This document shows, one piece after another, positions 719 to 62,340 of a stretch of 64,000 bases of DNA. Both the position numbers and the translations under genes were made by a program. Numbering within the stretch: the stretch's first letter is position 1; each line of letters begins with the position of its first letter. Source of the DNA: Vicinamibacterales bacterium (GTDB taxonomy: Bacteria; Acidobacteriota; Vicinamibacteria; Vicinamibacterales; UBA8438). Under the pieces are notes generated by a model that did not search any database, was not told the origin of the DNA, and saw only the letters and a program-made list of their open reading frames with translations. The stretch spans positions 947,986 through 1,011,985 of the forward strand of contig OZ252008.1 of assembly GCA_965246995.1 (NCBI GenBank). The letters run 5' to 3'.

Positions 719-1402
719 TCAGGTCAGGAGGGCCGCAAGCGTTTGGCGGTCGAGTTCGTCCAGACTGGCGACGACCGCCGCTGCGCCGGTGAGTTCGTCC
801 GAGGGATAACTGGTGGTGACGCCGACGCACGGCAGCCCGGCCGCGTTGGCTGACTCGATTCCCCAGCGCGAATCTTCGATGGCGATGAACCCGTCCGGCG
901 AGACAGGGCGGTCGAGTCCCCGGCAGAGCAGTTCGACCGCGCGCGCGTAGGTGTCGGGCGCCGGCTTGCTCGCCGCCACGTCGTCGGCTGCCACGATTGC
1001 AGCGAAGTGCTGCCGCAGTCCGGAGCGTGTCAGGATGATGTCGATCTCGTGGTGCAGGGCGCCTGACGCCACTGCGAGCGGGACACCGTCTGCCGCGCAC
1101 TGCTCGATGCAGCGGCGCGCGGCGGGGTACACCACGTCCGCCGACGCCACCCGTGCCGCGAAGTGGTCCGCTTTCGCGGCCGCCAGCCGCGCGGCATCCT
1201 CGGGGTCGATCGAAACGTCCTGGTCGCGCGCGATCGCCGCAAACAGTCCGGCGTCGTCCAGGCCAAGGTAGCGCTCCCAGTACGCCTCGTCGGACAGCTT
1301 CATCGGTCCACCCGCGAGCGCGTCCTGAAACGCCCGGAGATGGATAGGCTCGGTATCGGCGATGACGCCGTCGAAATCGAAGATGACGCCGAGCAGCTTC
1401 AC
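719..1402 (-). CDS. HAD-superfamily hydrolase (IA, beta-phosphoglucomutase-like)
   Basis: ORF 719..1489. It has HAD motif I, VIFDFDGVIADTE. The start is trimmed to GTG at 1402, which forms a GTGA overlap with the stop (1399-1401) of the upstream gene. Confidence 0.8.
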   Translation of the reverse strand: MKLLGVIFDFDGVIADTEPIHLRAFQDALAGGPMKLSDEAYWERYLGLDDAGLFAAIARDQDVSIDPEDAARLAAAKADHFAARVASADVVYPAARRCIEQCAADGVPLAVASGALHHEIDIILTRSGLRQHFAAIVAADDVAASKPAPDTYARAVELLCRGLDRPVSPDGFIAIEDSRWGIESANAAGLPCVGVTTSYPSDELTGAAAVVASLDELDRQTLAALLT

Positions 1403-2076
1403 GGCAGCCGGCGTTCGTCCTCGGGCGGCAGCTTCTCGCCGGCGAGAATCGGGATGGAGAGGCGGTTCTGCGGTGGCGGGAATGGACAATCGAACTGCTC
1501 GTCGAAGTAGCAGGTCGGATGGTATGCCCGGTTGAAGTCGAGGTCGTACACGCCGGTGGGCGAAAACGGCAGGTCGAGGTAGCGGCCGGCGGCGTAGGTC
1601 TCCATGCGGCTCGTTTCATCGCGGAACGGGACGAACAGTCCCGGGTCACCGTCGGAGACCAGGGCGTCCAGCCGATACTGCTCCCCTTGCAGGATGAACT
1701 CCAGGTGGCCGACATGCTCCATCTCTCGGACCAGTCCGGTCGATGTCGGGATGTCGAATACCTCCGGGTCTTCCGCCAGAACCAGGTTGGCGGGTACGCG
1801 ATACGCGGGATTCGGCTCGTAGTAACGCAGCGGCACCATCCATGAGCGGCGGTCTAGCGGCACCGGCGACTCGGCGCTGTTGCGGAAGAAATCATCCTTG
1901 AAGACGCGGTCCTCGAGCAGACGACCGACGTAGTTCCCCTCGTCGGGTGGCGGCGGACTGCATGCCGCTGCGGAGACGGCCGATACCAACAGCGCCAGCG
2001 CCCAGAAGTATCGAAACCCGGGCCGCGGGATAGGGTGACGCGCGGCGCCCACGCTCGTGGAGATCGTCCTGACCAT
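1399..2076 (-). CDS. DUF1684-family lipoprotein
   Basis: 225 aa with a signal/lipobox LLVSAVSAAAC. The conserved tail AGRYLDLPF...FNRAYHPTCYFDEQFDCPFPPPQNRL is typical of DUF1684. Confidence 0.7.
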   Translation of the reverse strand: MVRTISTSVGAARHPIPRPGFRYFWALALLVSAVSAAACSPPPPDEGNYVGRLLEDRVFKDDFFRNSAESPVPLDRRSWMVPLRYYEPNPAYRVPANLVLAEDPEVFDIPTSTGLVREMEHVGHLEFILQGEQYRLDALVSDGDPGLFVPFRDETSRMETYAAGRYLDLPFSPTGVYDLDFNRAYHPTCYFDEQFDCPFPPPQNRLSIPILAGEKLPPEDERRLP

Positions 2077-2079
2077 TCG

Positions 2080-2091
2080 ACGGGCTCCTAG
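2080..2091. repeat. solo terminus of the 184-bp element (ACGGGCTCCTAG)
   Basis: Exact 12-nt match to the right end of the 184-bp element. It fills the 11-nt gap between the DUF1684 start (2076) and the acyl-CoA dehydrogenase stop (cta 2088-2090). Confidence 0.45.
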
Positions 2092-3869
2092 AGTGGGTAC
2101 GCTCCTCGCTCGACCGCAGCGTCCGCCAGGCGGCGTCGGATCGCCACGGCATTGACCGGGATCACTTTCAGCAGCCGGCGGAGTACTGCGAGATGCGTCC
2201 GGAGCGTGTCGCCCTCCGCCATTGCCGCGAGCGCGGCCCGCGCCGTAACGTCAATCCGCAACGCGGCGTCGCTGACGTACACGGCCGCGGCATCCACCTG
2301 CCGGTCGGCGCCGGGCACGCCCTCCGCGGACGCGGCGCGCGCCCGCTGCACCACACTGTCGGCCGCGTAGGTGTCGATGATGATGTCGGCCGCGAGCGAC
2401 AGGATCTCCTGTTCGTCAGTCAGCTTGTTGCCATGCGTCTGGAGCGCCAGGCCGACGACCGCCAGCACCACCTTCCGGAACATGCCGACGGCGGCGTTCT
2501 GCGCTTCGAGCAAACCGTTGCCGGCCGGCGCTACGGGGGAGGGTGTCAGCAATTCGTCCTGCAGCTTCCGGGCCGCGTCGATCAGCGGCAAACCTCCCTT
2601 GAGCGCCCGTTTGACCAGCATGCCGGGGATCAGTAACCGGTTGATCTCGTTCGTCCCTTCGAAGATCCGGTTGACGCGCGAGTCGCGGTAGTGCCGCTCG
2701 GCGGGGTAGTCCCGGACGAAGCCGTTGCCGCCATGGATCTGCACGTTCTCGTCGAGAACGTAGTGCAGTGCCTCGCTGCCGGCCACTTTCAGGATCGATG
2801 ATTCAACCGCGTACTCCTCAAGGGTCCGCAGTAGCGCCCCGGTGTCTTCCGCGTCCGCCTCGGCGAGAGCGGCGTCAATCAAGCCGGCGGTCCGAAAGAC
2901 CATCGACTCGATCGCGTACGTCCTGGCGGTCATCTCGCCCAACTTGTGCTTGATAGCGCCGAAGTTGGCGATTGGCTGGCCGAACTGCTGACGGCTGGCC
3001 GCGTAGCGGGCCGCCTCGCCGACAGCCGATGTCGCGCTGCCGACGGTGGAGGCTCCCAGCTTGAACCGGCCGTAGTTGAGCACGTTGAAGGCGACGCGGT
3101 GGCCCTTGCCCACCTCGCCGAGCAGGTTTTCAGCCGGTACGCGGACGTCCTGCAACACGACCGCGGTCGTCGATGAGCCGTGGAGGCCCATCTTGTGCTC
3201 TTCCTTGCCGCTCGCGACGCCGTCGAATCCCCGCTCGACGATGAACGCGGTGAACTGCTCGCCGTTCACCTTCGCGAACACGATGTAGAGATCGGCGAAG
3301 CCGCCGTTCGTGATCCACATCTTCTCGCCGTTCAGTACGAAGCTGCCGTCCGCCTGCTCGGTCGCGCGTGCGCGGGCGCCGAGCGCGTCGGAGCCGGAGC
3401 CGGTTTCACTCAGGCAATAGGCGCCGACCAGTTCGCCTGACACCAGTTGCGGCAGGTAGCGCTGCTTCTGGTCCTCGGTGCCGAACATCAGGATCGGCAG
3501 GATGGCGAGCCCGGTGTGTGCGCCGATGGTGGAGCTGAACGAACCGCACCGGCCGACCGATCCGCCGATGATTGCCGAACTCACTTTGTCGAGTTCGAGG
3601 CCGCCGTACGCCTCCGGCACGTCGGTCCCGAGCAGCCCCAGCTCGCCTGCCTGCCGGAGCAACTGGCGGGCGAGATCCCAGTCCTTGGACTCGAGCCGAT
3701 CGTTTTGGGCCAACGTCTCGTCCGCGAACTGATCGGCGGTCTGGCGGAGGAGCCGATGTTCCTCCGTCATCCGTTCCGGCGTGACAATGGCATTGGGGTC
3801 CGTCTCGGCGAGCAGCCACTCGCCACCCCGTGCCGCGTGTTCCGTTGCCGTCATCGTTGCCGTTGCCAT
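2088..3869 (-). CDS. acyl-CoA dehydrogenase (long, ~590 aa type)
   Basis: 593-aa ORF. ACAD motifs are present: AYCLSETGSGSDA and QIHGGNGFVRDYPAERHYRDSRVNRIFEGTNEI. A C-terminal extension follows, as in FadE-type enzymes. Confidence 0.9.
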   Translation of the reverse strand: MATATMTATEHAARGGEWLLAETDPNAIVTPERMTEEHRLLRQTADQFADETLAQNDRLESKDWDLARQLLRQAGELGLLGTDVPEAYGGLELDKVSSAIIGGSVGRCGSFSSTIGAHTGLAILPILMFGTEDQKQRYLPQLVSGELVGAYCLSETGSGSDALGARARATEQADGSFVLNGEKMWITNGGFADLYIVFAKVNGEQFTAFIVERGFDGVASGKEEHKMGLHGSSTTAVVLQDVRVPAENLLGEVGKGHRVAFNVLNYGRFKLGASTVGSATSAVGEAARYAASRQQFGQPIANFGAIKHKLGEMTARTYAIESMVFRTAGLIDAALAEADAEDTGALLRTLEEYAVESSILKVAGSEALHYVLDENVQIHGGNGFVRDYPAERHYRDSRVNRIFEGTNEINRLLIPGMLVKRALKGGLPLIDAARKLQDELLTPSPVAPAGNGLLEAQNAAVGMFRKVVLAVVGLALQTHGNKLTDEQEILSLAADIIIDTYAADSVVQRARAASAEGVPGADRQVDAAAVYVSDAALRIDVTARAALAAMAEGDTLRTHLAVLRRLLKVIPVNAVAIRRRLADAAVERGAYPL

Positions 3870-8297: not shown

Positions 8298-8345
8298 TTA
8301 GGCGCCCGTGGTGAAACCTCGCGTAGCACCGCCACGGGCGGTTAG
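8298..8345 (-). repeat. 48-bp internally deleted derivative of the 184-bp element, TTAG-bounded
   Basis: The sequence is TTAGGCGCCCGTGGTGAAACCTCGCGTAGCACC-GCCACGGGCGGTTAG. Its first 33 nt match the reverse complement of the right end of the 184-bp element at 29/33. Its last ~15 nt match the other terminus. Confidence 0.6.
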
Positions 8346-9334
8346 GGGAGCGCGGCGAGCGTTGCCTGCGCCTGGGCGCCTTCGGCGGAATCAGGCGCGA
8401 CGTCAACGACCCGCTGGAAGTACTCCTTGGCGGTGGCTATGTCGCCCAGGTTGAGTGCCACTAGCGCGCGCTTGAAGAGCGGCATCGCCCAGTTCCCGTC
8501 GACCGAGATCGCCTTCTCGTACCACTCCGCCGCCTCTTCCGCCGCACCGCGCGCGAACGCCTGCTCGCCCTGGTTGTAGAGATCTTCCCGCGATGCGCTC
8601 AAGCTGGAGGCAGTCTCTTCGAGCAGCTGCAGTTCCTCGGGCGTGGCGGTGCCGGAAGCCATCCGCTGCCGGGCGCGCGCCACCAGGATGACCTGGTTGC
8701 CCGGATCCGCCTCGAGCGCCCGATCGTAAGCTGCGATCGCCGCGTCGTACTGCGTCTGCACGGCGTAGGCATTACCGATATTGACATGCAGCCGCGACAG
8801 CTGCGGGAGTTGCTCGAGGATCGACTCGTATCCGCTGATCGCCTGGTCGTAGTTGCCGGTGTTGTAGGCCTCATCCGCCGCGCTCTGGGCCGCTTCGATC
8901 CCGTCGAGATCGACTCCCTCTACCGCTTCCGCGCCGAGCGCCTGCTCGAGCGGGTGGAGAATGCGGTTCAACTGGAAGTCGACCGGCGGCGTTCGGGTCT
9001 GCGTCACCATGGCAGGTCCCTGGCTCGACAAGAAGCCACGCGGCTCGCCGTTCGCTGCTCCGCATTCCGCACCACAGTCGGCCCGGAACACCCACTGGCC
9101 GCTCGCGAGCCCCAGGACGGCGTAGCGTCCGTCGTCTTCGGTTGTCGTCTCGAATTCGGGCGGGTTCGCGGTGGGGTTGGTGGCCGTAATCGTGACGCCG
9201 GCCAGCGGGTTCCCGTTCTCGCCGGTCACCGTGCCGCCGACGCGTCCACGCTGCCCGTAGGCGGTGGCTGCGACCGCCAGCACGAGCAACGCTGCGACGC
9301 CGGAAAAGACAGCGTGACGTGAAAGCAGACTCAT
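8342..9334 (-). CDS. secreted CarboxypepD_reg-like domain + TPR-repeat protein
   Basis: 330 aa with a signal peptide. The N-terminal segment GTVTGENGNPLAGVTITATN...DDGRYAVLGLASGQWVF is followed by TPR-like repeats (YNTGNYDQAISGYE, GNAYAVQTQYDAAIAAYDRAL). Confidence 0.7.
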   Translation of the reverse strand: MSLLSRHAVFSGVAALLVLAVAATAYGQRGRVGGTVTGENGNPLAGVTITATNPTANPPEFETTTEDDGRYAVLGLASGQWVFRADCGAECGAANGEPRGFLSSQGPAMVTQTRTPPVDFQLNRILHPLEQALGAEAVEGVDLDGIEAAQSAADEAYNTGNYDQAISGYESILEQLPQLSRLHVNIGNAYAVQTQYDAAIAAYDRALEADPGNQVILVARARQRMASGTATPEELQLLEETASSLSASREDLYNQGEQAFARGAAEEAAEWYEKAISVDGNWAMPLFKRALVALNLGDIATAKEYFQRVVDVAPDSAEGAQAQATLAALP

Positions 9335-14115: not shown

Positions 14116-14209
14116 TCCGACGCCGGTCCAGAGCTTGCGAATGGCGAAGGCCTGAGCGATGATGGATGCGTTCCGGACAACAGCAGCAGCCTCCCAAGGA
14201 GGGTTTGAG

Positions 14210-15262
14210 ATGGATCAACGTCTCCGCATGTTCGCCACGTTGCTCACGGTCGTGCTGATGGCTTCGGGGCAGGCCTTCGCCCAGAGCCAGTCCGGGAGTG
14301 TCCCGGAAGCGGATCCGGACTGGGAGATGCCTCGGCTGGCGGACGGCCGGCCCGACCTGCAGGGCTACTGGACCACCCAGACGTTCACGCCGATGGAACG
14401 CCCCGAGTATCTGGGAGATCAGGCGTTCTACAGCGAGGAGGAGTTCGCGGTCCTCGAGTCGCAGTTGACGGTCAACGGGGCCGACCCGCTGGCACGCTTC
14501 GTCATCGACATTGCCGACCCGGAGGAACGCGCGCGGGTTCTCGACCAGAACCACCGCGACGAGACTTACGTGCACTATGACAACGCCATCTGGCTAGGCA
14601 CCAAGGTACCGAAGGGGCTGTCGACGCAGCGCACCTCACTGATTACGGACCCGCCGAACGGCCAGATCCCCCCACAGAACGAACAGGCCCAGGCGCGGCG
14701 GGCGGCGCGGCGGGCGGCGCGCGGCGACCGGGGGCCCTTCGACGGCTACGAGATGCGCCCGCACAGCGAGCGCTGCCTCAACTACCGCTACAATGCGCCG
14801 CCGCTGCAACCGCCCTCGTACAACGATATCCACCAGATCTTCCAGACGTCGACGCACGTCGTGATCTTCACCGAGCAGAGCACAAACCCGCCCCGGATTA
14901 TCCCGATCGACGGACGGCCGCCCGTCTCGGAGAAGATCCGCCAGTGGCCGGGTGACTCGCGCGGGCGCTGGGAAGGTGACACCCTGGTCGTCGAGAGCAG
15001 CCACTTCAACGACAAGTCCGAGTGGCAGGGCTCGAGCCGCGATCTCAAGGTCGTGGAGCGGTTCACCCGGGTGTCCGACGGCGGGATCCATTACACGTTC
15101 ACGGTGGAGGATCCGGCCACCTGGGACCAGTCCTGGAGCGCCGAGATTCCGATGATGGCCACTGAGGGGCCGATGTACGAGTACGCCTGCCACGAGGGCA
15201 ATCACGACATCCGGCACATCCAGGAGGTCTATCGCAACCTCGAGGAGCAGGAGACCCGCTGA
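14210..15262 (+). CDS. secreted hypothetical protein
   Basis: ORF 14159..15262 trimmed to ATG 14210, which lies 8 nt after AAGGAGGG. The signal peptide is MDQRLRMFATLLTVVLMASGQAFA. I recognise no family. Confidence 0.6.
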   Translation: MDQRLRMFATLLTVVLMASGQAFAQSQSGSVPEADPDWEMPRLADGRPDLQGYWTTQTFTPMERPEYLGDQAFYSEEEFAVLESQLTVNGADPLARFVIDIADPEERARVLDQNHRDETYVHYDNAIWLGTKVPKGLSTQRTSLITDPPNGQIPPQNEQAQARRAARRAARGDRGPFDGYEMRPHSERCLNYRYNAPPLQPPSYNDIHQIFQTSTHVVIFTEQSTNPPRIIPIDGRPPVSEKIRQWPGDSRGRWEGDTLVVESSHFNDKSEWQGSSRDLKVVERFTRVSDGGIHYTFTVEDPATWDQSWSAEIPMMATEGPMYEYACHEGNHDIRHIQEVYRNLEEQETR

Positions 15263-15264
15263 CG

Positions 15265-15276
15265 CCGGGCTCCTAG
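15265..15276. repeat. solo terminus of the 184-bp element (cCGGGCTCCTAG)
   Basis: GGGCTCCTAG is an exact 10-nt match to the element end. It lies between convergent genes, and its CTA is the stop codon of the serine hydrolase gene. Confidence 0.4.
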
Positions 15277-27403: not shown

Positions 27404-29407
27404 GTGCACGACCTCGACATCCTTCGCGACCTGGCGATCATCGCCGGTCTCGCCATCCCTGTCGTTGCGCTCGCGCACCGGTTGCGCCTGCCGCCGCTGG
27501 TCGGCTTCCTCGTGGTGGGGGTGGTGATCGGTCCCTCCGGCCTGGCGCTAATCCCGGACCCCGACGAAGTATCAGCGCTTTCCGAGATCGGCGTCGTTCT
27601 GTTGCTGTTTGCGATCGGTCTGGAGCTTTCGCTCTCCGATGTTCTCCGGCTTGGCCGCTCGGTCGTCGTGGCGGGCGGACTGCAAATCGCGGGAACCCTG
27701 GCTGCCGCCCTCGCCATCGGCCTTGCCTTCGGCCTGTCGCCCGGCCGCGCGCTCTTCTATGGCGCGCTCGCGGCGATGTCGTCGACGGCGGTCGTCAGCA
27801 AGGCGTACGCCGACCGGGGCGAACTCGACACGGCGCACGGGCGCCAGGTGATCGCGATCCTGCTCTGCCAGGACCTCTGCATTGTTCCGATACTGCTGTT
27901 GCTGCCGCTCGCCGCCGGCGGAACCGTCAATGGCGAGGCGGCCGGCCTGAGAATCCTGGTCGGTCTTGCGGCGATGACGGCGCTGGTCTTCGGCGGCCGC
28001 GTCGTCGTGCGCGCCACGCTCGACCGGATCGTCATGCTGCGCGACCGCGAGCTGTTCACGCTCTGCGTGGGTTTCTTTGGGCTCGCGACTGCGCTGGTGG
28101 CCGCGGGGACGGGCTTCTCGCTGGCGATCGGCGCATTTCTTGCCGGCCTCATCATCTCGGAGTCGGAGTACGGCCAACAGGCGCTCTCGGACGTCATCCC
28201 GTTCCGCTCGCTCTTCAGCGGTGTCTTCTTCACCTCCATCGGCATGCTGCTTGACTTGCGCGTCGTGATGGACGCGCCGTTCGCCGTTATTGGGGGGACC
28301 CTGTTACTCATCATCGCCAAGGGAGGGATTGCCACGGCGGCCGTCATCCTGCGCGGGCAACGGTTGGAGACCGGGCTCCGGAGCGGTATCAGTCTGGCGC
28401 AGTTGGGCGAGTTCTCATTCGTCCTTGCCGCGGTCGGTCTGGATCTGGGCCTGTTCGCGGGCAATCACTACCAGGTCTTCCTCGCGGCGGCGGTGCTCTC
28501 GCTGATGGCGACGCCGTTCCTGATCGGGTCCGCGTACCAGGCGTCGGAAGCGGTCGGCCGGGTGGTGCGACGCACCGTCACGCATGCCCGCGGCGTGGAG
28601 GCGGAACCGCGCGTCAGTGGCGAGTTGAGCACGTTGCGCGACCATGCAGTCGTCGTTGGCTACGGTGTTGCCGGTCGGTACCTGGGACGCATGCTGCAAG
28701 CGGCCGGCATCCGGTGCGTGGTGATCGACCAGAACGTAGAGTTGGTCCGACAGGCGCACGACGACGGGCTGCTGGCCGTTTATGGCGACGGTGCGAACTC
28801 GCTGATGCTGGAGCAGGTGGGTTGCGAGCGCGCGCGTATCGTCGTCTACGCGATCGCGTCACCGGTGGAGGAGCGCCGCGGCGTGGCGGCGGCGCGTGAG
28901 GTCGCGCCCGGAGCCACCATCGTTGTCCGGACTCGCTATGTCCGCGCCATTGACGACCTCATGCGTCTCGGCGCGAACGAGGTAGTGGTGGAGGAGTTCG
29001 AGGCGTCACTCGAGCTGTTCGCCCGCGCGCTCCGGAGCTACGCGATCCCGCCGCGCCGTATCGCGCATGAGTTGAACGCGGTGCGCGATGAACACTACGG
29101 ATTGTTACGCGGAACCGCGGCTCCCGACCTGACGCTCGACGCGCTGCAACACCTGGGCATTCACGACGCGCTCGAGCTGATCGAGGTGGAAGCAGGTTCG
29201 AGGGCCGACGGCGAGAACGCCCGCACGCTCGATCTCCGGCGGGAGACGGGGGCGATACAGATCGCTGTCGTGCGCGATGGGGTCCCCATTTACCGTCGTG
29301 ACGAGGCGTTCCGGTACCGGCCGGGAGATACTGCAGTCATCGTCGGTGATCCGGAAGCCCTGGAACGCGCTGCGGCTCTGTTCCGGGTGGGTTCTGCCGC
29401 GACCTAG
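27404..29407 (+). CDS. CPA2-family cation:proton antiporter with TrkA-N/TrkA-C domains (Kef-like)
   Basis: 667 aa. The N-terminal half has about 12 TM segments. It is followed by the Rossmann motif VVVGYGVAGRYLG and a C-terminal TrkA-C-like region. Confidence 0.9.
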   Translation: MHDLDILRDLAIIAGLAIPVVALAHRLRLPPLVGFLVVGVVIGPSGLALIPDPDEVSALSEIGVVLLLFAIGLELSLSDVLRLGRSVVVAGGLQIAGTLAAALAIGLAFGLSPGRALFYGALAAMSSTAVVSKAYADRGELDTAHGRQVIAILLCQDLCIVPILLLLPLAAGGTVNGEAAGLRILVGLAAMTALVFGGRVVVRATLDRIVMLRDRELFTLCVGFFGLATALVAAGTGFSLAIGAFLAGLIISESEYGQQALSDVIPFRSLFSGVFFTSIGMLLDLRVVMDAPFAVIGGTLLLIIAKGGIATAAVILRGQRLETGLRSGISLAQLGEFSFVLAAVGLDLGLFAGNHYQVFLAAAVLSLMATPFLIGSAYQASEAVGRVVRRTVTHARGVEAEPRVSGELSTLRDHAVVVGYGVAGRYLGRMLQAAGIRCVVIDQNVELVRQAHDDGLLAVYGDGANSLMLEQVGCERARIVVYAIASPVEERRGVAAAREVAPGATIVVRTRYVRAIDDLMRLGANEVVVEEFEASLELFARALRSYAIPPRRIAHELNAVRDEHYGLLRGTAAPDLTLDALQHLGIHDALELIEVEAGSRADGENARTLDLRRETGAIQIAVVRDGVPIYRRDEAFRYRPGDTAVIVGDPEALERAAALFRVGSAAT

Positions 29408-29415
29408 GAGCCCGT
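29404..29415. repeat. solo terminus of the 184-bp element (CTAGGAGCCCGT)
   Basis: Exact 12-nt match to the left end of the element. Its TAG is the stop codon of the antiporter gene. Confidence 0.45.
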
Positions 29416-32163: not shown

Positions 32164-32347
32164 ACAGGAGCCCGTGGTGAAACCCCCGCTACATTCGAGC
32201 GGCGACGCATCCCGCCTGAACGGCGTTGCTCCTCGGACTGCGTCAGTCCGCGGTCGCAATATGGCCAATATGCTCCCTCGTCGCGCCTTGTCAGGCGAGC
32301 GCCTCGTCGCTCTCGGTGCTACGCGGGGTTTCACCACGGGCTCCTAG
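32164..32347 (+). mobile_element. 184-bp inverted-repeat element, copy 1 (MITE-like)
   Basis: About 95% identical (9 mismatches by my count) to 48005..48188 in the same orientation. The terminal inverted repeat is GGAGCCCGTGGTGAAACCCC / GGGGTTTCACCACGGGCTCC. The right flank is CTAG and the left flank is ACAG. Confidence 0.8.
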
Positions 32348-32929
32348 GGCCTGCACCTCACCGTGTCGGAAGCAGTCCACCTGGTGGTCGTTCACCATGC
32401 CCGTCGCCTGCATGTGCGCGTAGCAGATGGTGGAACCGACGAACGAGAAGCCACGCGACTTCAGGTCCTTGCTCAATGCATCGGACTCCTCGGTTCGCGC
32501 CGGCACGTCGGTCCAGGACTGCCTTCTGTTCTGTTTCGGACGACCGTCTACGAACCGCCAGATGTAGGCATCGAAGCTGCCGAACTCGTCCTGCACCTCG
32601 AGAAACGCCCGTGCGTTCTTGATGGCCGATTCGATCTTCAACCGGTTCCGGATAATGCCCGCGTCGTTCAGCAGCCGCGCCACCTGGCCTTCGTCGAACC
32701 GTGCGACCTTCTCCGGATCGAACTGGCTGAACGCAAGACGGTACGCCGGTCGCCGTTTCAGGATGGTGAGCCAGCTCAACCCCGCCTGCGCCCCTTCCAG
32801 CACCAGCATCTCGAAGATTTTCTGATCGTCATGGAGCGGCACGCCCCATTCCTCGTCGTGGTACGGCAGGTAGAGGGGGTGGGAGGCGCCCCAGGGGCAG
32901 CGCTTCCGCTGGTCGCCCGGTGCGGTCAC
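32291..32929 (-). CDS. tag: DNA-3-methyladenine glycosylase I
   Basis: ORF 32291..33007 trimmed to GTG 32929 (MTAPGDQRKRCPWG). It matches E. coli Tag-like blocks: YHDEEWGVP, FEMLVLEGAQAGLSW and ICYAHMQATGMVNDH. The last 18 codons and the stop lie inside element copy 1. Confidence 0.85.
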   Translation of the reverse strand: MTAPGDQRKRCPWGASHPLYLPYHDEEWGVPLHDDQKIFEMLVLEGAQAGLSWLTILKRRPAYRLAFSQFDPEKVARFDEGQVARLLNDAGIIRNRLKIESAIKNARAFLEVQDEFGSFDAYIWRFVDGRPKQNRRQSWTDVPARTEESDALSKDLKSRGFSFVGSTICYAHMQATGMVNDHQVDCFRHGEVQALGARGETPRSTESDEALA

Positions 32930-32952
32930 GGCGTCATGATACTGTCGTAGCC

Positions 32953-34092
32953 GTGCAGCGCGCCCGTCTTTCGGCCCTGTGCATGGCGATCGCCATCGGG
33001 TCGACAACGGGTTCCTCCTCCCTCGCGCAGCAGGCGGAACGGGAACCGTTCGTTGCTCCGCTCACGGTCGAGGAGATGACCGCCAAGCAGGTGGTCCTCG
33101 AGACCCACCTGGGCACGATCGCGATCGATCTCCGGCCCGACCTTGCGCCCAATCATGTCGGGTTGATCATGCGCCTCGTCGAGGAGGGAACCTACGCCGG
33201 CACGACGTTCCACCGGATGGTCGCTAACGGCATCGTTCAGGGCGGCGACCCGCTTACCGCCGATCCGGAGCGGGCGGCGGACTATGGCCGCGGCGGCCTC
33301 GGTCTCGTTGACGCCGAGCCGAGCGGCGCGGCGCATCTCCGGGGCACCGTGTCGGCCGTCGTGGCGCCGGGCGATCCGAACAGCGGCGGCGCGCAGTTCC
33401 TGATCTGCGTCGTGGATCAGCCGGGCCTTGACGGCCAGTACACCATCTGGGGCCAGGTGGCGGACGGTTTGGATGTGGTGACGCGGATATCCGAGACACC
33501 GGTCGATGCCGAGGGCCGCGCCACCGAGCGAATCGTGGTCCGAAGCGCCGCGATCCGCGACAAGCCGCCGCCGGAAGTGCCGCCGTTCACCACCGAAACG
33601 GATGCCGAGCTGGCCGCGTACCGCGTCGTGCTCGAGACTACGCATGGCCGGATCGCTATCGACCTGTACTCGGACCGCGCGCCGAACCATGTCCGCAACT
33701 TCCTCCGTCTGGCCGACGCGGGCGTCTACGACGGCATCGCGTTCCACCGCATCGTTCCCGGTTTCGTCATCCAGAGCGGCCACCTGCCGACCCGGCGGGA
33801 GATCCTGACGGACCGCCAGCAGCGCTACATCCAGAACCTCGACCCGGAATTCAACGACACGCCGCACGTTCGCGGCATCGTCTCGATGGCGAGACTCGAC
33901 GATCCGTCGAGCGCGTCGACCAGCTTCTTCATCGTCACTGACACGTCGCCGGAGTTGGACGGTACCTACACCGCCTTCGGCGTCGTCACCGAGGGTCTGG
34001 ATGTCGTGTCGGCAATTGAAGCGGTGCCCACCGACGGCGAGGCCCCGGTCGACAGGGTCGAGATCACCGACGCCGAAGTGGTCCGCCGTTAG
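32953..34092 (+). CDS. peptidyl-prolyl isomerase with two tandem cyclophilin domains
   Basis: ORF 32920..34092. The signal-peptide-like start is at GTG 32953. Two cyclophilin cores are present (FHRMVANGIVQGGDP and FHRIVPGFVIQSG). Confidence 0.85.
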   Translation: MQRARLSALCMAIAIGSTTGSSSLAQQAEREPFVAPLTVEEMTAKQVVLETHLGTIAIDLRPDLAPNHVGLIMRLVEEGTYAGTTFHRMVANGIVQGGDPLTADPERAADYGRGGLGLVDAEPSGAAHLRGTVSAVVAPGDPNSGGAQFLICVVDQPGLDGQYTIWGQVADGLDVVTRISETPVDAEGRATERIVVRSAAIRDKPPPEVPPFTTETDAELAAYRVVLETTHGRIAIDLYSDRAPNHVRNFLRLADAGVYDGIAFHRIVPGFVIQSGHLPTRREILTDRQQRYIQNLDPEFNDTPHVRGIVSMARLDDPSSASTSFFIVTDTSPELDGTYTAFGVVTEGLDVVSAIEAVPTDGEAPVDRVEITDAEVVRR

Positions 34093-35357: not shown

Positions 35358-35369
35358 CGTCTCTCTCTA

Positions 35370-48004: not shown

Positions 48005-48188
48005 CTAGGAGCCCGTGGTGAAACCCCCGCTACATTCGAGCGGCGATGCATCCCGCCTGAACGGCGTTGCTCCTCGGACTGCGCCAGTCCGCGGTCTCAA
48101 TATGGCCAATATGCTCCCTCGTCGCGCCTTGTCAGCCGGGCGCCTCGCCGCTCTCGCTGCTACGCGGGGTTTCACCACGGGCTCCTAG
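48005..48188 (+). mobile_element. 184-bp inverted-repeat element, copy 2 (MITE-like), CTAG on both sides
   Basis: See copy 1. It runs from CTAG at 48005-48008 to CTAG at 48185-48188. It lies between czcB and czcA. Confidence 0.8.
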
Positions 48189-49732
48189 TGGGTATGGCCG
48201 TGGGCAGGGACCTGGGGTGAGAGAGCCGCGAGGCGGATCAGCGGCGCGCCGTGGATGACGATACGTTCTCCTAGAGCGACATCTCCCGTCACCTGCACGG
48301 CGTCCCCCTCCCGGTTGCCGAGCGTGACCGGGCGGCGTTCGAACGACTCGCCTCCCACTTGCACGAAGAGCACCGGCTGACCCGCATCATCGACGATGGC
48401 GCTTTCCGGCACCGTGATCGTCTCCATCCCTTCCGACAGGAACAGGCGCAGCGTTACCGCCTGGCCAATCACGATCCGGCGATCGGGGTCACGCAACTCG
48501 TACGTGATCGGAACGGTGCGGGCGCCGAGATCGAGAACGCGGCCCACGGCCACCAGCCGTTCGAGGGGCACTGGCGCGCCGAGACCCGGGACTTCGAGTT
48601 CAGCGCCGGTCAGGTCGCCGATCCGCGGAAGCGCAGCCTCCGGCACCGCGCCCACGACATGCACCCGATCCACGGCCACCAGTTCGAACAAACGTGCTGC
48701 CGCCTCGATGCTCGCCCCCGGTGTCGCTTCCGAGAACGCGACAACACCGCTGATCGGCGCACGCAGCACGAAGCGGATGTCATGCTCGCCGTCACCCTCA
48801 CCGGCCCGTGTCGCATCAAGTTGGGCGATATGCGCCTCGGCCGCGTGGAGGCGTACCTCGGCGATATCCTCGGCGACCCGGGCTTCAAGCTGCCGCCGCG
48901 CCGGCACCGCGCCAGCCGCCACCAGGCGATCGACGCGCGCCCGCTCGGCCCGGCTCAGCTCGAGTGCGCTTCGCGCCTCCGCCACGTCCAGTTCGAGCGC
49001 CGGCCGGTCCTCGCCATGACCGCTGTGTGGGATTACCTCGGCCAGCGTGTCGCCCCGCGTGACGAGCGAGCCGATGGGCAGTGGCGGCAGTTCCTCTGCC
49101 AGACGGCCCGTGACCGGCGTGGTCACGTCGGCGCGGCCGCCGGTACGCGGCGCAATCTCGGCCGCAATCGACAGACTGTCGGCGACCGGACGCACCGTGG
49201 CAGGCGCGGTGCCGAAGTCGAGCGCCCATTGCTGTTCCTTCAGGAAGGAGATCGATCCGTCATCTTCGGCCGCCGTGACGGCAGCGGATGCCGCATCGGG
49301 CGAGGCGTGCACGGTCACCGCCCCGAGGCGATGCCGGTCGGCGAGGCCGGGCGCATCGAGCAGGATTTCCAGCTCGTACGCGCCGGGAGAAGATGGCGTG
49401 ACGTCGATGCCGAAGATACCGGGGCGGCTGGGAGCGTCGGCGGTGTAAGTCTGATCCGCGGCGCCACGCAACAGCACAGTCGCGCGGCCCGACCGGATCG
49501 GTTCGAACGTCGCCAGATCGGTCAGATGGACCGCGAAGCGGCTTGTCTCTCCCGCCGCGAGGGCGGGGTACTCGACGAACAACTCGGTGCGGTCAGTCCA
49601 GCGAGTCTCGACGACCGACGGCCGGACATCCGGATCCACCACCGGCGCGGCCGCCGGCGCCATGTCGGATCCACCGGCGCAAGCGGCGGACACCAGGGCC
49701 ACGATCCCGGCAAACGCCCGCGTCATCGTCAT
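48185..49732 (-). CDS. czcB: RND efflux periplasmic adaptor (CzcB/CusB-like)
   Basis: 515 aa with a lipoprotein-like signal peptide. It has coiled-coil and beta-barrel MFP blocks and a His-rich tail PAHGHTH. Its TAG stop is the terminal CTAG of the element. Confidence 0.85.
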   Translation of the reverse strand: MTMTRAFAGIVALVSAACAGGSDMAPAAAPVVDPDVRPSVVETRWTDRTELFVEYPALAAGETSRFAVHLTDLATFEPIRSGRATVLLRGAADQTYTADAPSRPGIFGIDVTPSSPGAYELEILLDAPGLADRHRLGAVTVHASPDAASAAVTAAEDDGSISFLKEQQWALDFGTAPATVRPVADSLSIAAEIAPRTGGRADVTTPVTGRLAEELPPLPIGSLVTRGDTLAEVIPHSGHGEDRPALELDVAEARSALELSRAERARVDRLVAAGAVPARRQLEARVAEDIAEVRLHAAEAHIAQLDATRAGEGDGEHDIRFVLRAPISGVVAFSEATPGASIEAAARLFELVAVDRVHVVGAVPEAALPRIGDLTGAELEVPGLGAPVPLERLVAVGRVLDLGARTVPITYELRDPDRRIVIGQAVTLRLFLSEGMETITVPESAIVDDAGQPVLFVQVGGESFERRPVTLGNREGDAVQVTGDVALGERIVIHGAPLIRLAALSPQVPAHGHTH

Positions 49733-55215: not shown

Positions 55216-57438
55216 ATGATCAGGGTGACTTTTTCCGGGCCGGTCCGCTCTACCGTTCTGGCGTCGTGCCTCGTCGTAGCGGGACTCCTCCTGCCGGCGG
55301 CTGGCGCGGAGGCGCAGGACTGGCCCAGTTGGCGTGGTCGGGCGCAGACCGGCGTCTCCGATCTGACCGGATTGCCGTCGAGCTGGTCACTGGAGGGCGA
55401 GAACTTCGTCTGGTTCCAGCCCTACATCGCGCGGTCGACGCCGGCCGTTTTTGACGGTCGAGTCTGCGCAAATGGCCGGACCGGTGACAATGTCGCGAAG
55501 AAGGAGATCGTCACCTGCTGGGATGCCGAAGGTGGCACGCAGCTCTGGCAGCACACCTTCAACGTTCTGAACACCACCGTCCCGTTCAACCGGGTCGGCT
55601 GGGGGAGCGTGACCGGCGATCCGGAGACCGGCTATCTCTACGCGTTAAACGTGGACGGGCACCTGCACGCCTTCGACCGTGACGGCGAAATCGTCTGGAG
55701 TCGGCGGCTGCACGAAGACCTGGGCCGAGCCTCCGGGTACGGCGGACGCACGTCGACCCCGATCATCGATGAGGACCGGCTGATTCTCGGCGTAATCGGC
55801 TCGATCTGGGGCAATCTTGGCGGGCCGCCCCGCCATCGCTACGTCGCTTTCAACAAGGCGAACGGCAACATCGAATGGATCGCAACGCCGGGCGGCCAGC
55901 CGGCGGACCTCAACACCCAGTCGGTGCCGATCGTCGCCGTGGTGAACGGCCAGCGGCTGATCATCGACGGCAACGCCGACGGCCACATCTACGCGCTGCA
56001 GGCCCGGACTGGCAGGAAAGTCTGGGAGTTCCGCCTGAGCCAGCGCGGCATCAACGTCTCCCCGGTGATCGACGGCACCACCGTCTACGTCGCCCACAGC
56101 GAAGAGAACATCGATCAGGGCACGATGGGGCGCCTCGTCGCACTGGATGCCACTCGCGAAGGCGACATCACGGAAACGGGTGAAGTCTGGCGGATAGACG
56201 AAATGGCGGTCGGCTTCTCGTCGCCGCTGATCCATGACGGTCGCCTCTACGTGATCGACAACTCGGCCAACCTCTATGCGATCGACGCGTCGAACGGGTC
56301 GGTGCTGTGGGAGGAGAGCGTCGGCACGGTCGGCAAGTCGTCGCCCGTCTGGGCCGACGGCAAGCTGTACATCACCGAGGTCAACGGCAACGTCCACATC
56401 CTGCAACCGGGGGCTGACGGCGTGGAGTTCCTCGACAGCGACGAACTGGAGGTCGAAGACGGCCGCTACGCCGAGATATACGGCTCGTTCGCTCCGGCCT
56501 ACGGGCGGCTCTACGTGACGGCGGAATCGGGGGTTTACTCCATCGGCGATCCCGCCGCGCCGTTCGACGCTACGCCCGGCGAAACGCCGGCGCTCGGCAA
56601 CGAATCGGCGGCCGCCGATACGGTGGCGAGCATACAGGTGCATCCCGCCGAGGTCGTCGCCTCGGCCGGCGAGACGCTCCGCTTCCGCGTCGAGGCGTTC
56701 GACGCGAACGGACAGTCGCTCGGCGCCCGGGACGCTACCTGGTCGCTCGAGGACCTGGCCGGGTCGCGCCTGCGCGTCAACGGAGAGTTCCAATCCCCGC
56801 CCGACTCGACCAATCAGGCAGGCCGGGTGATCGCCAGGGTCGGAAACGTCTCGGCCGCGGCCCGCGTCCGCATCTTTACGCAACTTCCCTGGGCGGAGAA
56901 CTTCGAGAACGGACGGCCGGGCCATTGGATCGGCGGCGGCGGCAGCCTGGCCGCGGTGGACGAGGGGGGCGAGCAGCTCTTCCGCAAGGGTCCATCGCGG
57001 ACCGGCATCCACCGGCACGCCATCTACATCGGTCCGTCCCACCTGTCCAACTACACCGTGCAAGCCGACGCGATGTCGACGCAGAAGGGGCGGCGACGAC
57101 CCGACATCGGCCTGATCAACAGCGGCTACACGATGGACCTGCAGGGCAACCACCAGCGGATCGAGGTCCGCTCGTGGGCGGCGGAACTGCGAATGGCGGA
57201 GCGGTTCGACTTCGCCTGGGAGCCGGACGTCTGGTACACGTTGAAGCTGCGCGTCGACACCGATGAGAATCGCGCGCTGATCCGCGGGAAGGTTTGGCGG
57301 CGCGGCGATCCGGAGCCGGAGGTCTGGACGGTGACCGTGGAGGATCCCGAACCGGTTCAAGACGGCAGTCCCGGCCTGATCGGCTACTCGCCGATCGACA
57401 TCTACTATGACAATGTGCGCGTGATGGAGAACCAATGA
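55216..57438 (+). CDS. secreted PQQ-like beta-propeller repeat protein with C-terminal lectin/glucanase-like domain
   Basis: ORF 55084..57438 trimmed to ATG 55216 (signal peptide). It has the N-terminal DWPSWRG and repeated propeller blades (YALNVDGHLHAFD, IYALQARTGRKVWEF, LYAIDASNGSVLWE). A C-terminal domain of about 200 aa ends in YYDNVRV. Confidence 0.8.
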   Translation: MIRVTFSGPVRSTVLASCLVVAGLLLPAAGAEAQDWPSWRGRAQTGVSDLTGLPSSWSLEGENFVWFQPYIARSTPAVFDGRVCANGRTGDNVAKKEIVTCWDAEGGTQLWQHTFNVLNTTVPFNRVGWGSVTGDPETGYLYALNVDGHLHAFDRDGEIVWSRRLHEDLGRASGYGGRTSTPIIDEDRLILGVIGSIWGNLGGPPRHRYVAFNKANGNIEWIATPGGQPADLNTQSVPIVAVVNGQRLIIDGNADGHIYALQARTGRKVWEFRLSQRGINVSPVIDGTTVYVAHSEENIDQGTMGRLVALDATREGDITETGEVWRIDEMAVGFSSPLIHDGRLYVIDNSANLYAIDASNGSVLWEESVGTVGKSSPVWADGKLYITEVNGNVHILQPGADGVEFLDSDELEVEDGRYAEIYGSFAPAYGRLYVTAESGVYSIGDPAAPFDATPGETPALGNESAAADTVASIQVHPAEVVASAGETLRFRVEAFDANGQSLGARDATWSLEDLAGSRLRVNGEFQSPPDSTNQAGRVIARVGNVSAAARVRIFTQLPWAENFENGRPGHWIGGGGSLAAVDEGGEQLFRKGPSRTGIHRHAIYIGPSHLSNYTVQADAMSTQKGRRRPDIGLINSGYTMDLQGNHQRIEVRSWAAELRMAERFDFAWEPDVWYTLKLRVDTDENRALIRGKVWRRGDPEPEVWTVTVEDPEPVQDGSPGLIGYSPIDIYYDNVRVMENQ

Positions 57439-58934
57439 CTCGACTGTCCCCGATCACCGGAATTCGCTTCGCTGCCCCGGGCGCCGCGCGTCTGGCCGTC
57501 GCCGGCCTGTTCGCGCTGACCGCCCTGGCCGCACCGGCCGCACCGGCCGCCGCGCAGGAGACCGCCATGTTCGGCAACACGCCCGAACGCAACATGGTGT
57601 CGGACGAAACCGGCGTGGTCTCCGAGTGGGATGCCTCAACCGGGCGAAACGTTCTCTGGTCGCAGCCAGTCGGATCACAGGCCTACGGCGGACCGGTGGT
57701 GGCGAACGGCCGTGTCTATGTCGGCACGAACAACGAGGGGCGTCGCGACCCGGCGATCGACGGCGACAAGGGCGTCGTCATGGCGTTCGAAGCCACTGGC
57801 GGCGATTTCCTGTGGCAGATGGTCCATCCCAAGCTATCGTCCGGCCGCGTGAACGATTGGCCGCTGCAGGGCATCTGCTCCACCGCGTTCATGGAAGGCG
57901 ACCGGATCTGGTACGTCTCGAACGAGGCGCACATCGTCTGCCTCGACGCGAAGGGCCTTGCCGACGGCAACGAGGGTCCGTTCATGGACGAGGAGCAGAC
58001 CGGCGGCCAGAATGGCGACATTATCTGGTCGTACGACATGATCGGCGAGCTCGACGTCTTCCCGCACAACCTCGCCACCGGCTCCCCCCTCATCGTCGGT
58101 GACGTCCTGTTCACGGTAACCAGCAACGGCGTCGACGAGGGCCACGTCAACATTCCGTCCCCCTTCTCGCCCGCCTTCATCGCCCTCGACAAGAACACGG
58201 GCGAACTGCTTTGGGAATCGAACCCGGTGGGCGAAGAGGTCCTGCACGGCGCCTGGACGAACCCGACGTACGGGGTCGTCGACGGACGGGCTCAGGTGAT
58301 CTTCCCGGGCGGTAACGGCGTCATCTACAGCCTCGACCCGGAGACGGGCGACCTGCTCTGGGAATTCGACTGCAACCCGAAGGACTCCGAGTGGATCCTT
58401 GGGGGACGGGGTACGCGCAACAACATCCTTTCGACGCCGGTGGTGTACGACAACAAGGTGTACATCGGCGTCGGCCAGGACCCGGAGCATGGCGAGGCGC
58501 CGGGCCACCTCTGGGTGATCGACGCGACCGGCAGGGGTGACGTGACCGACACGCACGTCGTCTGGCACCGGGGAGGCGAAGACTTCTACCGGACGATGTC
58601 GACCGCCGCGATCGCCGACGGCGTCCTCTACATCTCGAGCCTCTCCGGCTTCCTGCACGCCCTCGACGCGCAGACCGGCGAGGAGTTCTGGACCTACGAC
58701 ACGTTCGCGGCGGTCTGGGGCTCCCCGTTCGTCGCCGACGGCAAGGTGTTCCTGGGCGACGAGGATGGCGACGTCGCGGTCCTGCGCGCGGGACGCGAAC
58801 TCGAGCTCCTGGGAGAGTACAACCTCGGGGCCGCCGTCTACTGCACCCCGGTAGTCCGCGACGGCGTCCTCTACGTCCTCACCCGGAACCGCATCTGGGC
58901 CTTCCAGGAAGGCGCCCAGGGCGACCCGCTCTGA
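57435..58934 (+). CDS. secreted PQQ-like beta-propeller repeat protein
   Basis: 499 aa with an ATGA overlap with the preceding gene. It has a signal peptide and propeller blades (VMAFEATGGDFLWQ, IALDKNTGELLWE, IYSLDPETGDLLWEF, LHALDAQTGEEFW). Confidence 0.8.
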   Translation: MTRLSPITGIRFAAPGAARLAVAGLFALTALAAPAAPAAAQETAMFGNTPERNMVSDETGVVSEWDASTGRNVLWSQPVGSQAYGGPVVANGRVYVGTNNEGRRDPAIDGDKGVVMAFEATGGDFLWQMVHPKLSSGRVNDWPLQGICSTAFMEGDRIWYVSNEAHIVCLDAKGLADGNEGPFMDEEQTGGQNGDIIWSYDMIGELDVFPHNLATGSPLIVGDVLFTVTSNGVDEGHVNIPSPFSPAFIALDKNTGELLWESNPVGEEVLHGAWTNPTYGVVDGRAQVIFPGGNGVIYSLDPETGDLLWEFDCNPKDSEWILGGRGTRNNILSTPVVYDNKVYIGVGQDPEHGEAPGHLWVIDATGRGDVTDTHVVWHRGGEDFYRTMSTAAIADGVLYISSLSGFLHALDAQTGEEFWTYDTFAAVWGSPFVADGKVFLGDEDGDVAVLRAGRELELLGEYNLGAAVYCTPVVRDGVLYVLTRNRIWAFQEGAQGDPL

Positions 58935-58996
58935 GGGTGCGCCGGCCTGGTGCGCCGGCCTCCCGGCCCGGCACCCTCCGTCATCAACCGCCGCTG

Positions 58997-59035
58997 CTAG
59001 GCGCCGCGACCCGATGTGAGATGATGGGCTCCTAG
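58997..59035. repeat. 39-bp CTAG-bounded mini-element
   Basis: The sequence is CTAG-GCGCCgcgacccgatgtgagatgatGGGCTC-CTAG. The termini resemble those of the 184-bp element and its 48-bp derivative. It ends 6 nt before the ATG at 59042. Confidence 0.5.
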
Positions 59036-59041
59036 TCCGTC

Positions 59042-60142
59042 ATGACAAGAGTGTGCATTCCGATGCTCCTGGCAGGCTTGGTCCTGAGCCTGTCGCCGGT
59101 CCACGCGCAGAGCGGTGACCCCGGCGCGTGGGACCCGCAGGCCGCTGCCGCCTATCTCGACAAGCGTGCGGACTGGTGGTCGGGCTGGGAGACGGCGGCG
59201 CGGGAAAGCGGCACATTCTGCCTTTCGTGCCATACGACGGCCCCATACGGCCTCGCCCGGCCGATGCTGCGGCCCGCGGGCCATGCAAGCGAGGCGACGC
59301 AGTACGAGCGGGCGGTGCTCGAGAGCGCGACGACCCGCGTCACCCACTGGGCCGAGATCGGCCCCTTCTACACCGACGAGCGCCACGGCCCACCCAAGAC
59401 GAGCCAGTCGCGGGGGACCGAAGCGATACTCAACGCGCTGATCCTCGCTCAGCACGACGCGCGGCGCGGCGTGCTGAGCGACCGGACGCTCCAGGCATTC
59501 GACAACCTCTGGGCACTGCAGCAGACGGAGGGCGCCGCCGCGGGCGCGTGGCCCTGGCTGCACTTCAACCTCGCGCCGTGGGAATCGGACGAGGGGCCGT
59601 ACCACGGGGCGGCGCTGGCCGCCGTGGCGGTGGGACTCGCACCGGACGGCTATGGCGCCCGCTCCGAGATCCAGGACAACGTCGCACGGCTCGGTGATTA
59701 CCTCCGGCAGCAGCTCGACAGCCAGCCGCCCTTCAATCGCGCCATGGCGCTATGGGCCTCCGGGGCGCTGCCCGATCTCCTGGCGGACGCGCAGCGGCAG
59801 GTGATCGTCGACGAGATCGTCGGCCTGCAACGGGAGGACGGCGGTTGGAGCCTGCCGTCGCTCGGAACCTGGTCCCGGCGGGACGAGACACGCCTCGACA
59901 CGAAGAGCGACGGGTACGCGACGGGGCTGGTCACGTTCGCGCTGCAGCAGGCCGGGCTGCCCCGCGATCACGATGCGGTCGCGGGCGGCCTCGGCTGGCT
60001 CGCGCGAAACCAGGACGCCGACGGATCCTGGCCTGCCTCGTCACTCAACCGAAAGCACGATCCGGCGTCGGACCGCGGCCGCTTCATGCGCGATGCCGGG
60101 ACCGCCTACGCCGTGCTGGCCCTGACGGCGGGCGAGGACTGA
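59042..60142 (+). CDS. secreted protein with one CXXCH motif and prenyltransferase/terpene-cyclase-like alpha-alpha toroid repeats
   Basis: 366 aa with a signal peptide and FCLSCH at about residue 59. C-terminal repeats are QREDGGWS, DGYATGLVTFAL and NQDADGSW. Confidence 0.6.
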   Translation: MTRVCIPMLLAGLVLSLSPVHAQSGDPGAWDPQAAAAYLDKRADWWSGWETAARESGTFCLSCHTTAPYGLARPMLRPAGHASEATQYERAVLESATTRVTHWAEIGPFYTDERHGPPKTSQSRGTEAILNALILAQHDARRGVLSDRTLQAFDNLWALQQTEGAAAGAWPWLHFNLAPWESDEGPYHGAALAAVAVGLAPDGYGARSEIQDNVARLGDYLRQQLDSQPPFNRAMALWASGALPDLLADAQRQVIVDEIVGLQREDGGWSLPSLGTWSRRDETRLDTKSDGYATGLVTFALQQAGLPRDHDAVAGGLGWLARNQDADGSWPASSLNRKHDPASDRGRFMRDAGTAYAVLALTAGED

Positions 60143-60171: not shown

Positions 60172-60197
60172 CTAGGAGTCCATATACGGGCTCCTAG
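60172..60197. repeat. 26-bp CTAG-bounded mini-palindrome
   Basis: The sequence is CTAGGAGtCC-atatac-GGgCTCCTAG. It lies between convergent genes. The right CTAG supplies the TAG stop of the gene at 60194..60589. Confidence 0.6.
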
Positions 60198-60589: not shown

Positions 60590-60617
60590 ACTCGCCCTCC
60601 TCAAAGCTCTTCTCCAG

Positions 60618-62321: not shown

Positions 62322-62340
62322 CTAGGAGCCCGACTCCTAG
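62322..62340. repeat. 19-bp CTAG-bounded mini-palindrome
   Basis: The sequence is CTAGGAG-cccga-CTCCTAG, a 7-bp stem. The right CTAG supplies the TAG stop of the M28 peptidase gene. Confidence 0.6.

Follow-up and report, generated by a model that had tools for sequence, protein, structure and literature searches.

Why do seven genes within a single 64-kb stretch of a bacterial genome reach their stop codons inside the same short motif? The stretch, called the window here, is part of the single-contig, 4.55-Mb genome of a Vicinamibacterales bacterium (G000; 66.9% GC). We followed the motif through the whole genome and through five same-genus genomes (G001-G005; six species including G000), in which the genes flanking the studied sites are ~80-90% identical to those of G000. 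Genes were called genome-wide with a home-made, crude codon-usage caller, which returned 3862 genes ending in TGA (2128), TAG (1349) or TAA (385). Expected motif counts outside the element come from a 3rd-order Markov chain, applied genome-wide after removal of recognisable element copies.

Gene ends in the window

The open reading frame list and Pfam matches bear out all seven gene ends that a preliminary description of the window had placed in the motif, each of them within CTAG or TTAG. The genes and the sites at their ends are listed here, together with two full copies of the MITE described below.

2088..3869 (minus strand): acyl-CoA dehydrogenase (ACAD) gene, 593 aa; stop TAG at 2088-2090
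2080..2091 (minus strand): one-ended 12-nt remnant, CTAGGAGCCCGT on the minus strand; holds the ACAD TAG at 2088-2090
8342..9334 (minus strand): TPR gene; stop TAA at 8342-8344, inside TTAG
8298..8345: internally deleted mini-MITE, 48 bp, bounded TTAG...TTAG; the TPR gene ends at its right TTA (8342-8344), read as TAA
15273..16520 (minus strand): beta-lactamase-fold serine hydrolase gene; stop TAG at 15273-15275
15265..15276 (minus strand): one-ended 11-nt remnant, CTAGGAGCCCG on the minus strand; holds the serine hydrolase TAG
27404..29407 (plus strand): Na_H_Exchanger+TrkA (Kef-like) gene; stop TAG at 29405-29407
29404..29415 (plus strand): one-ended 12-nt remnant; holds the TAG of the Kef-like gene at 29405-29407
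32164..32347: full 184-bp MITE copy; left flank ACAG, right flank CTAG
48185..49732 (minus strand): HlyD-type czcB gene; stop TAG at 48185-48187
48005..48188: full 184-bp MITE copy with a long-hairpin fold; separates the czcB stop (48185-48187) from the czcA start (47995)
58997..59035: stretch of 39 bp, possibly a degenerate mini-element, CTAGGCGCC...ATGGGCTCCTAG; lies upstream of gene 59042..60142
60194..60787 (minus strand): DUF6152 gene; stop TAG at 60194-60196
60172..60197: two-ended 26-bp mini-element, CTAGGAGTCCAT-AT-ACGGGCTCCTAG; its right CTA is the DUF6152 TAG stop (60194-60196)
From 62337 (minus strand): M28 peptidase gene; stop TAG at 62337-62339
62322..62340: two-ended 19-bp mini-element, CTAGGAGCCCGACTCCTAG, that is CTAGGAGCCCG-ACTCCTAG; its right CTA (62337-62339) is the M28 TAG stop

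Three of these sites (2080, 15265 and 29404) had been described as solitary, exact 12-mers. Their coordinates and TAG stops stand, but 15265-15276 matches over only 11 nt. The stops of the DUF6152, M28 and TPR genes are likewise where they had been placed, including the TAA in the TTAG variant at 8342-8344, but the sites are two-ended mini-elements and not the single ends that had been proposed. The czcB stop does lie in the motif, as the right end of a full 184-bp copy. A further motif site at 59024-59035 was absent from the first list. In all, three to five sites in the window have two ends and measure 19 to 48 bp from CTAG to CTAG. The uncertain member at 58997..59035 is so regarded because part of it aligns with a conserved 5' leader in relatives; in the matching intergenic region, G004 and G005 carry truncated MITE arms of 35 nt and 47 nt. 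Close by, a short GC-rich repeat that contains GGTGCGCCGGCC twice occupies 58936-58973, immediately behind the stop of gene 57435..58934. It is rare in G000 (4 hits) but occurs in dozens of places in each same-genus relative, and is probably another small repeat family.

The motif had been judged too frequent for chance, and chance can indeed be rejected. The 64-kb window contains GGGCTCCTAG 9 times, where shuffles lead one to expect 0.02, and the 12-mer with up to 2 mismatches 18 times against 5.6. Outside recognisable copies, the genome as a whole has 20 instances of CTAGGAGCCC (0.8 expected) and 10 of the 12-mer (0.06 expected). Moreover, GGAGCCC is enriched beside CTAG ~25- to 175-fold over the Markov expectation with full copies removed, and GAGCCC follows the stop in 66 of the 1349 TAG-terminated genes, or 17% of the 379 stops that read C-TAG. 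Both enrichments had been named in advance as checks on the motif. Full-type ends account for 51 of these 66 stops and remnants for 15.

The MITE family

The motif is most probably the terminal 10-12 nt of a non-autonomous hairpin MITE. The genome holds ~100 full copies, 99 of them cleanly paired, in size classes of ~166, 184 and 201 bp; it contains 159 CTAGGAGCCC ends and 288 ends within 3 mismatches of the inverted repeat. Its fold is a long, imperfect hairpin (-58 kcal/mol, z = -7). The element was found in 22 of the 31 related genomes searched, G000 counted, with 75-88% identity in the other genomes, and occurs in most genomes of the host family.

The proposal that the enzyme targets CTAG (YTAR) holds up well: CTAG stands at both ends of 70 of the 99 full copies, and the remainder mostly have YTAR variants. 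The exceptional flank pairs (CTAG, CTAA; six copies), (TTAG, CTAG; three), (ATAG, CTAG; two) and (CTAG, CTAC; two) are informative. Only a TA duplication can explain pairs such as CTAG/CTAA and TTAG/CTAG. A 4-bp YTAR duplication was rejected on the asymmetry of the flanking tetramers, in which the outer base varies in 19 cases and the inner base in 2 among the 99 full copies. The target-site duplication is therefore TA, the element begins with G and ends with C, and YTAR is its preferred target. Beyond the target, the outer flanks of full copies are unrelated to one another.

This geometry has a consequence for stop codons. Because the element begins with G and ends with C, insertion turns C-TA-G into C-TA-[G...C]-TA-G, and a TAG stop is rebuilt on either strand. 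An insertion onto a stop codon thus leaves the protein unchanged, the TAG being rebuilt with the element's terminal base.

The full copy at 32164-32347 touches a gene in another way. The last 19 codons and the TGA of a 3-methyladenine glycosylase gene (32291..33007, minus strand) are element sequence. All five relatives have an empty CCAG at this site and a 17-codon tail of their own (5/5). The MITE has replaced the C-terminal tail of a repair enzyme and left its Pfam domain (residues 39-215) untouched.

Supply of target sites

Why should such insertions gather at gene ends? The preliminary description argued that CTAG survives in this genome mainly in stop contexts, and a census does not bear this out. 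CTAG occurs at 1757 sites, a 7-20-fold deficit relative to tetramers of equal base composition. By our own caller, the 1553 sites off the MITE comprise 639 coding, 603 intergenic, 307 at stop codons and 4 that overlap gene edges. Stop codons thus make up 20% of all free sites and 34% of the non-coding ones. Coding sequence holds 0.16 CTAG per kb and intergenic sequence 1.3. The related expectation that insertions end up at gene ends fares better. Of the full copies, 45 of 99 adjoin at least one gene stop, modestly above the 34% of free non-coding CTAG sites that are stops (Fisher p = 0.026).

Orthologous sites in same-genus genomes

The idea that genes take their stop codon from the motif reverses the order seen in the relatives: at the ACAD, DUF6152, M28 and czcB genes these already have TAG at the corresponding codon, usually in CTAG. 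The sole stop base that the element resupplies is the G of TAG, from its first base. At the ACAD stop, CTAG stands bare at this codon in G003, G004 and G005, and a spacer of 6 nt separates it from the next start. The spacer in G000 is 11 nt, with extra bases GCCCGT, a net gain of 5/6 nt. Bare CTAG also stands at the DUF6152 stop in G002 and G003, so that empty sites are found opposite both 2080 and 60172-60197.

The clearest case is the M28 gene, which has a single TAG in G003, G004 and G005. On the gene strand, G004 reads GAG-TAG-CCGTCAG and G000 reads AAC-TAG-GAGTCGGGCTCC-TAG-CCGTCAC. The G000 remnant is an exact 15-nt insertion, made of 13 nt of element ends and a duplicated TA(G). The site at 62322-62340 thus shows both the duplication and, in the flank match to G004, the empty site. 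Across the sites as a group, identity to the inverted repeat starts from CTAG, and intermediates link full copies to remnants.

At the serine hydrolase stop codon, G003 has CCGGGCTGCTAG, G002 a 16-bp mini-element, TAGGAGCCTGTCCTAG, and G004 a TGA with no remnant. Between the DUF420 gene and the serine hydrolase, G000 alone has an inserted gene (14159..15262), which encodes 367 aa without a Pfam match, belongs to a large paralogous family, and lies beside the old 15265 remnant; its orthologues in G004 lie ~0.6 Mb away. The remnant is probably older than this extra gene, since G003 has a remnant without the gene. For the same reason, we rejected the remnant as a rearrangement breakpoint. At the Kef-like gene, the relatives have TGA (G004 and G005), TAG or TAA, all without the motif, and the intergenic region cannot be aligned; the comparison is uninformative for this site.

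The junction between czcB and czcA offers a view of one site in several states. The element sequence there measures 184 bp in G000, ~88 nt in G004 and G005, ~55 nt in G003 and 12 nt in G001 (GAGCCCGCGGC+CTAG), and homology among the left ends of the remnants in G001-G005 is plain to see. Compared across species, the junction reads as a decay series that ends in a one-ended solo remnant, and the full copy in G000 is young. A metagenome pattern scan for further states of the junction returned two distant contigs, neither of them informative.

Remnants across the genome

Had the solitary ends been a separate class of exact 12-mers, as first described, their lengths should be uniform. They appear instead as decay remnants of continuous length, several of them two-ended. 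Exact prefixes of the inverted repeat, 9-17 nt long and starting exactly at CTAG, occur at 34 non-element sites. At non-element CTAG, the prefix is 9 nt long in seven cases, 10, 11 and 12 nt in five each, 13 and 14 nt in two each, and 16 nt in one. Derivatives measure 15, 16, 19, 23, 26, 33, 34, 39, 48, 50, 61-97, 166, 184 and 201 bp, a series that runs without a gap from 15 bp to the full element. A second YTAR at a distance of 15-39 bp closes 7 of the 34 remnants, and in 5 of those 7 it is preceded by the last 3-5 nt of the element. A generic second CTA within 30 nt of a remnant is not significant (7/34 vs 458/2950). The surroundings of CTAG are full of other transposon ends, and so only the specific ...CTCC+TA signature is informative.

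One-ended remnants are biased to stop codons: 14 of 24 of their ends adjoin a gene stop, whereas full copies do so at 48 of 198 ends (Fisher p = 0.001). This bias is expected if deletions that take the gene-side end are purged. The remnants are also clustered. Of the 30 remnants in the genome that reach 9 nt or more, six are inside this 64-kb window (Poisson 5e-6 before correction for the choice of window), and 10 lie within 811-1010 kb, whereas full copies show no comparable concentration. Decay alone does not explain this clustering.

Probable decay of insertions on stop codons

The solo motifs are, in all likelihood, worn-down leftovers of MITE insertions on pre-existing TAG or TAA stops, eroded by deletions. 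In this scheme, the stop codons came first, and the element lands on the TA of a CTAG, less often of CTAA or TTAG, where the TA is duplicated and the TAG rebuilt. Internal deletions then yield two-ended mini-elements of 15-50 bp, and one-sided loss leaves 9-17 nt of a single end. Selection would purge insertions in coding CTAG, while those at stop-codon and intergenic CTAG may survive for the time that decay takes. Of the two ends, the one next to the gene would preferentially be kept, because its deletion would remove the stop codon too. On the simplest reading, the deletions may be spontaneous and driven by the hairpin or by microhomology; repair after excision or after abortive insertion could also produce them. 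The motif at stop codons is an ordinary product of transposon decay and no new signal.

For three window sites the argument is less direct. The remnants at 2080, 15265 and 29404 have no second end or duplication left, and we infer their descent from full copies by analogy with better preserved sites. At 29404 the relatives have something other than TAG at the corresponding codon (TGA in G004 and G005), which makes an ancestral CTAG conjectural there. At 2080 the flanks look intact and the net gain is 5/6 nt, which calls for a deletion endpoint almost at the element border or for some other mechanism.

Could the transposase itself have left such short ends? Excision followed by Ku/LigD joining or interrupted gap repair, or abortive one-ended transfer followed by trimming, would each leave from a few to a dozen terminal nucleotides. 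G000 encodes Ku, and the small net insertion with intact flanks at 2080 fits such an event. So do several remnants, among them TAG-ACGGGCTCC-TAG at genome position 870302 and TA-GGAGCCTCC-TA at 3617847, in which both TA copies are kept and one end is cut to 0-3 nt, as if cleaved at the border. Additionally, ISY100 in vitro gives mostly single-end insertions, and short, defined junctions after excision (PMC2170065). However, canonical Tc1/IS630 footprints keep 2-3 nt per end, as in the TATATA junction of ISY100 (PMC2170065), and not 8-17 nt. The remnant lengths here are continuous and asymmetric, and the czcB/czcA series looks like a single old insertion being eroded step by step as the species diverged. 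We regard transposase footprints as a real but minor possibility. Somewhat less probable still is the fuller version, in which the remnants are excision or abortive-insertion footprints made by Ku joining or gap repair, a fossil record of MITE turnover, with at least the one at 2080 since put to use as a ribosome-binding site for the DUF1684 gene (1399..2076), whose ATG (2076) lies 8 nt downstream of the remnant's GGAG.

A quite different reading takes the solo motifs as unused targets, an end-like sequence beside CTAG serving to attract the transposase. Several transposon families do pile up at CTAG beside element ends: the ends of IS630-type elements adjoin an end of the MITE type or of the IS5-like insertion sequence in 4 of 16 cases for family D and 4 of 5 for family A. 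Moreover, G004 already reads CTAGGA at the ACAD stop. But the empty sites in relatives are without the GAGCCCGT extension, and the outer flanks of full copies share nothing. Two-ended mini-elements with a duplicated TA cannot be targets, and in the czcB/czcA series the short form derives from the longer one. This reading is very improbable.

That the 12-mer is a functional signal, coupling a stop to a Shine-Dalgarno sequence (TAG-GAG) or forming part of a terminator, is scarcely credible: the GGAG at 2080 is well placed before the next gene of its operon and the 7-mer CTAGGAG is about twice as frequent as expected outside elements (89 vs 44), but most remnants have no downstream start on the same strand and only 2080 has suitable spacing (15265 faces a convergent gene, and the next start is at least 35 nt from 29404), the short remnants have neither hairpin nor T-run, their lengths range over 9-17 nt with the bases after GGAG matching the inverted repeat and no ribosome-binding consensus, and the motif is absent from orthologous gene ends in the relatives. 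An Rfam scan of the 64-kb window returned one tRNA only and no match at the motif. On spacing, lengths, relatives and Rfam, we exclude a stop-plus-ribosome-binding-site or terminator function as the general explanation.

Resident transposons and a possible mobilising enzyme

Two kinds of resident element were compared with the MITE as possible sources of its mobilising enzyme. The first is a 1473-bp insertion sequence with 11 near-identical copies, whose transposase (DUF772 + DDE_Tnp_1) is of the IS1182/IS5 kind. It is the only resident element with MITE-like ends (GCAGCCCGTGGTGAAAGTCC against GGAGCCCGTGGTGAAACCCC in the MITE, 17/20 by our own count). The shared inverted repeats expected of an IS5/IS1182-derived MITE are thus present, but the same 4-bp duplication is not: copies in relatives have 4-bp duplications, TTAG/TTAG and CTAA/CTAA (L059 = G008; L060 = G005). 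The MITE and this insertion sequence have the same end sequence and a different duplication, TA vs 4 bp.

The second kind carries the IS630-type DDE_3 domain, with 27 hits in four families (A, B, C and D), all in CTAG. The MITE has the TA duplication with CTAG preference expected if IS630-type enzymes mobilised it. As obvious parents, the four families were rejected on their ends, TA-GTGTC..., TA-GTGTGCCG... and TA-GTGGTCCGTCAC... against TA-GGAGCCCGTGG in the MITE.

At least six families are flanked by CTAG at both ends: the MITE, the 1473-bp IS5/IS1182-like element and IS630-type A-D. Examples in G000 lie at 1831031-1832503, 2073441-2074687, 2656035 and 3864044. Each insertion adds one CTAG, so that elements stack side by side. 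At 35367-38614 in the window, two insertion sequences stand head to tail and have one CTAG (37084-37087) in common. One, of ~1.72 kb, has ~10 near-identical copies and ~6 at 80% identity, ends in ...GGTGAGAAATCCGGG, and adjoins MITE ends at five other genome positions. The other, of ~1.53 kb and with DUF772+DDE_Tnp_1, has ~10 copies and starts with CTAGGAGTCTGCGCC.

Implications and comparison with known systems

What does the motif mean for reading such genomes? At gene ends it is transposon debris, and recognising it as such spares annotators from treating it as a signal. The family is a case of safe-harbour transposition, in which CTAG is very rare in a 67% GC genome and an element with G...C ends rebuilds TAG on both strands. 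The rarity of CTAG and the rebuilding of TAG together account for the 45% of copies that sit on stops and for the 17% of C-TAG stops that carry an element or remnant. The few harmless CTAG sites are reused across species, and at least six transposon families compete there. These observations should be useful for the annotation of Acidobacteria and for dating insertions, and leave the general view of transposons unchanged.

Much of this behaviour has precedents. In Neisseria, the Correia elements (CREE/nemis) are 100-160-bp hairpin MITEs that number about a hundred, duplicate TA and lie near gene ends. The family described here shares the hairpin, the copy number of about a hundred, the TA duplication and the closeness to gene ends, but the sequence and host phylum are unrelated, and strict CTAG targeting with TAG rebuilding belongs to the MITE here only. 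Eukaryotic cut-and-paste transposons such as Tc1/mariner, P and Ac/Ds give rise to internally deleted derivatives and leave excision footprints. As in those derivatives, the termini are kept, the interior is lost to a variable extent and the duplication flanks the product; here, unlike there, the host is bacterial and the mechanism is a proposed one.

REP singlets provide a parallel to the one-ended remnants, being described in PMC3116915 and PMC3337134 as remnants of REPIN doublets. In both systems, as far as those accounts go, single short arms at gene ends are the decayed remains of a mobile hairpin that had two arms. RAYT, an IS200/IS605-like enzyme, moves REPINs without target duplication, whereas the MITE here has inverted-repeat ends and duplicates TA. 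With respect to targeting, comparable elements are IS630, whose hallmark is a preference for the TA in 5'-CTAG-3' (Tenzen & Ohtsubo 1990, 1991, as cited in PMC2170065), and ISY100, a bacterial IS630/Tc1-type element of the Tc1-mariner superfamily (PMC2170065). The MITE likewise duplicates TA inside CTAG. However, ISY100 excision leaves 2 nt per end (PMC2170065), and the remnants here reach 17 nt.

Finally, MITEPsy1 of Pseudomonas syringae pv. phaseolicola, together with ISPsy2, is a case of a CTAG-targeting MITE related to IS5-family elements (PMC3189936); that paper contains no description of remnants at stop codons. Like MITEPsy1, the element here is short and non-autonomous, has inverted repeats that resemble those of a resident insertion sequence, and inserts at CTAG or YTAA (PMC3189936). 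Unlike the element here, which has G...C ends and duplicates TA, MITEPsy1 duplicates 4 nt. It is also smaller (100 nt vs 166-201 bp) and confined to few pathovars, whereas the present family extends through its host family and parts of the order. Set beside these systems, the MITE family is new and its behaviour is known, with a neat geometry that preserves the stop codons on which it lands.
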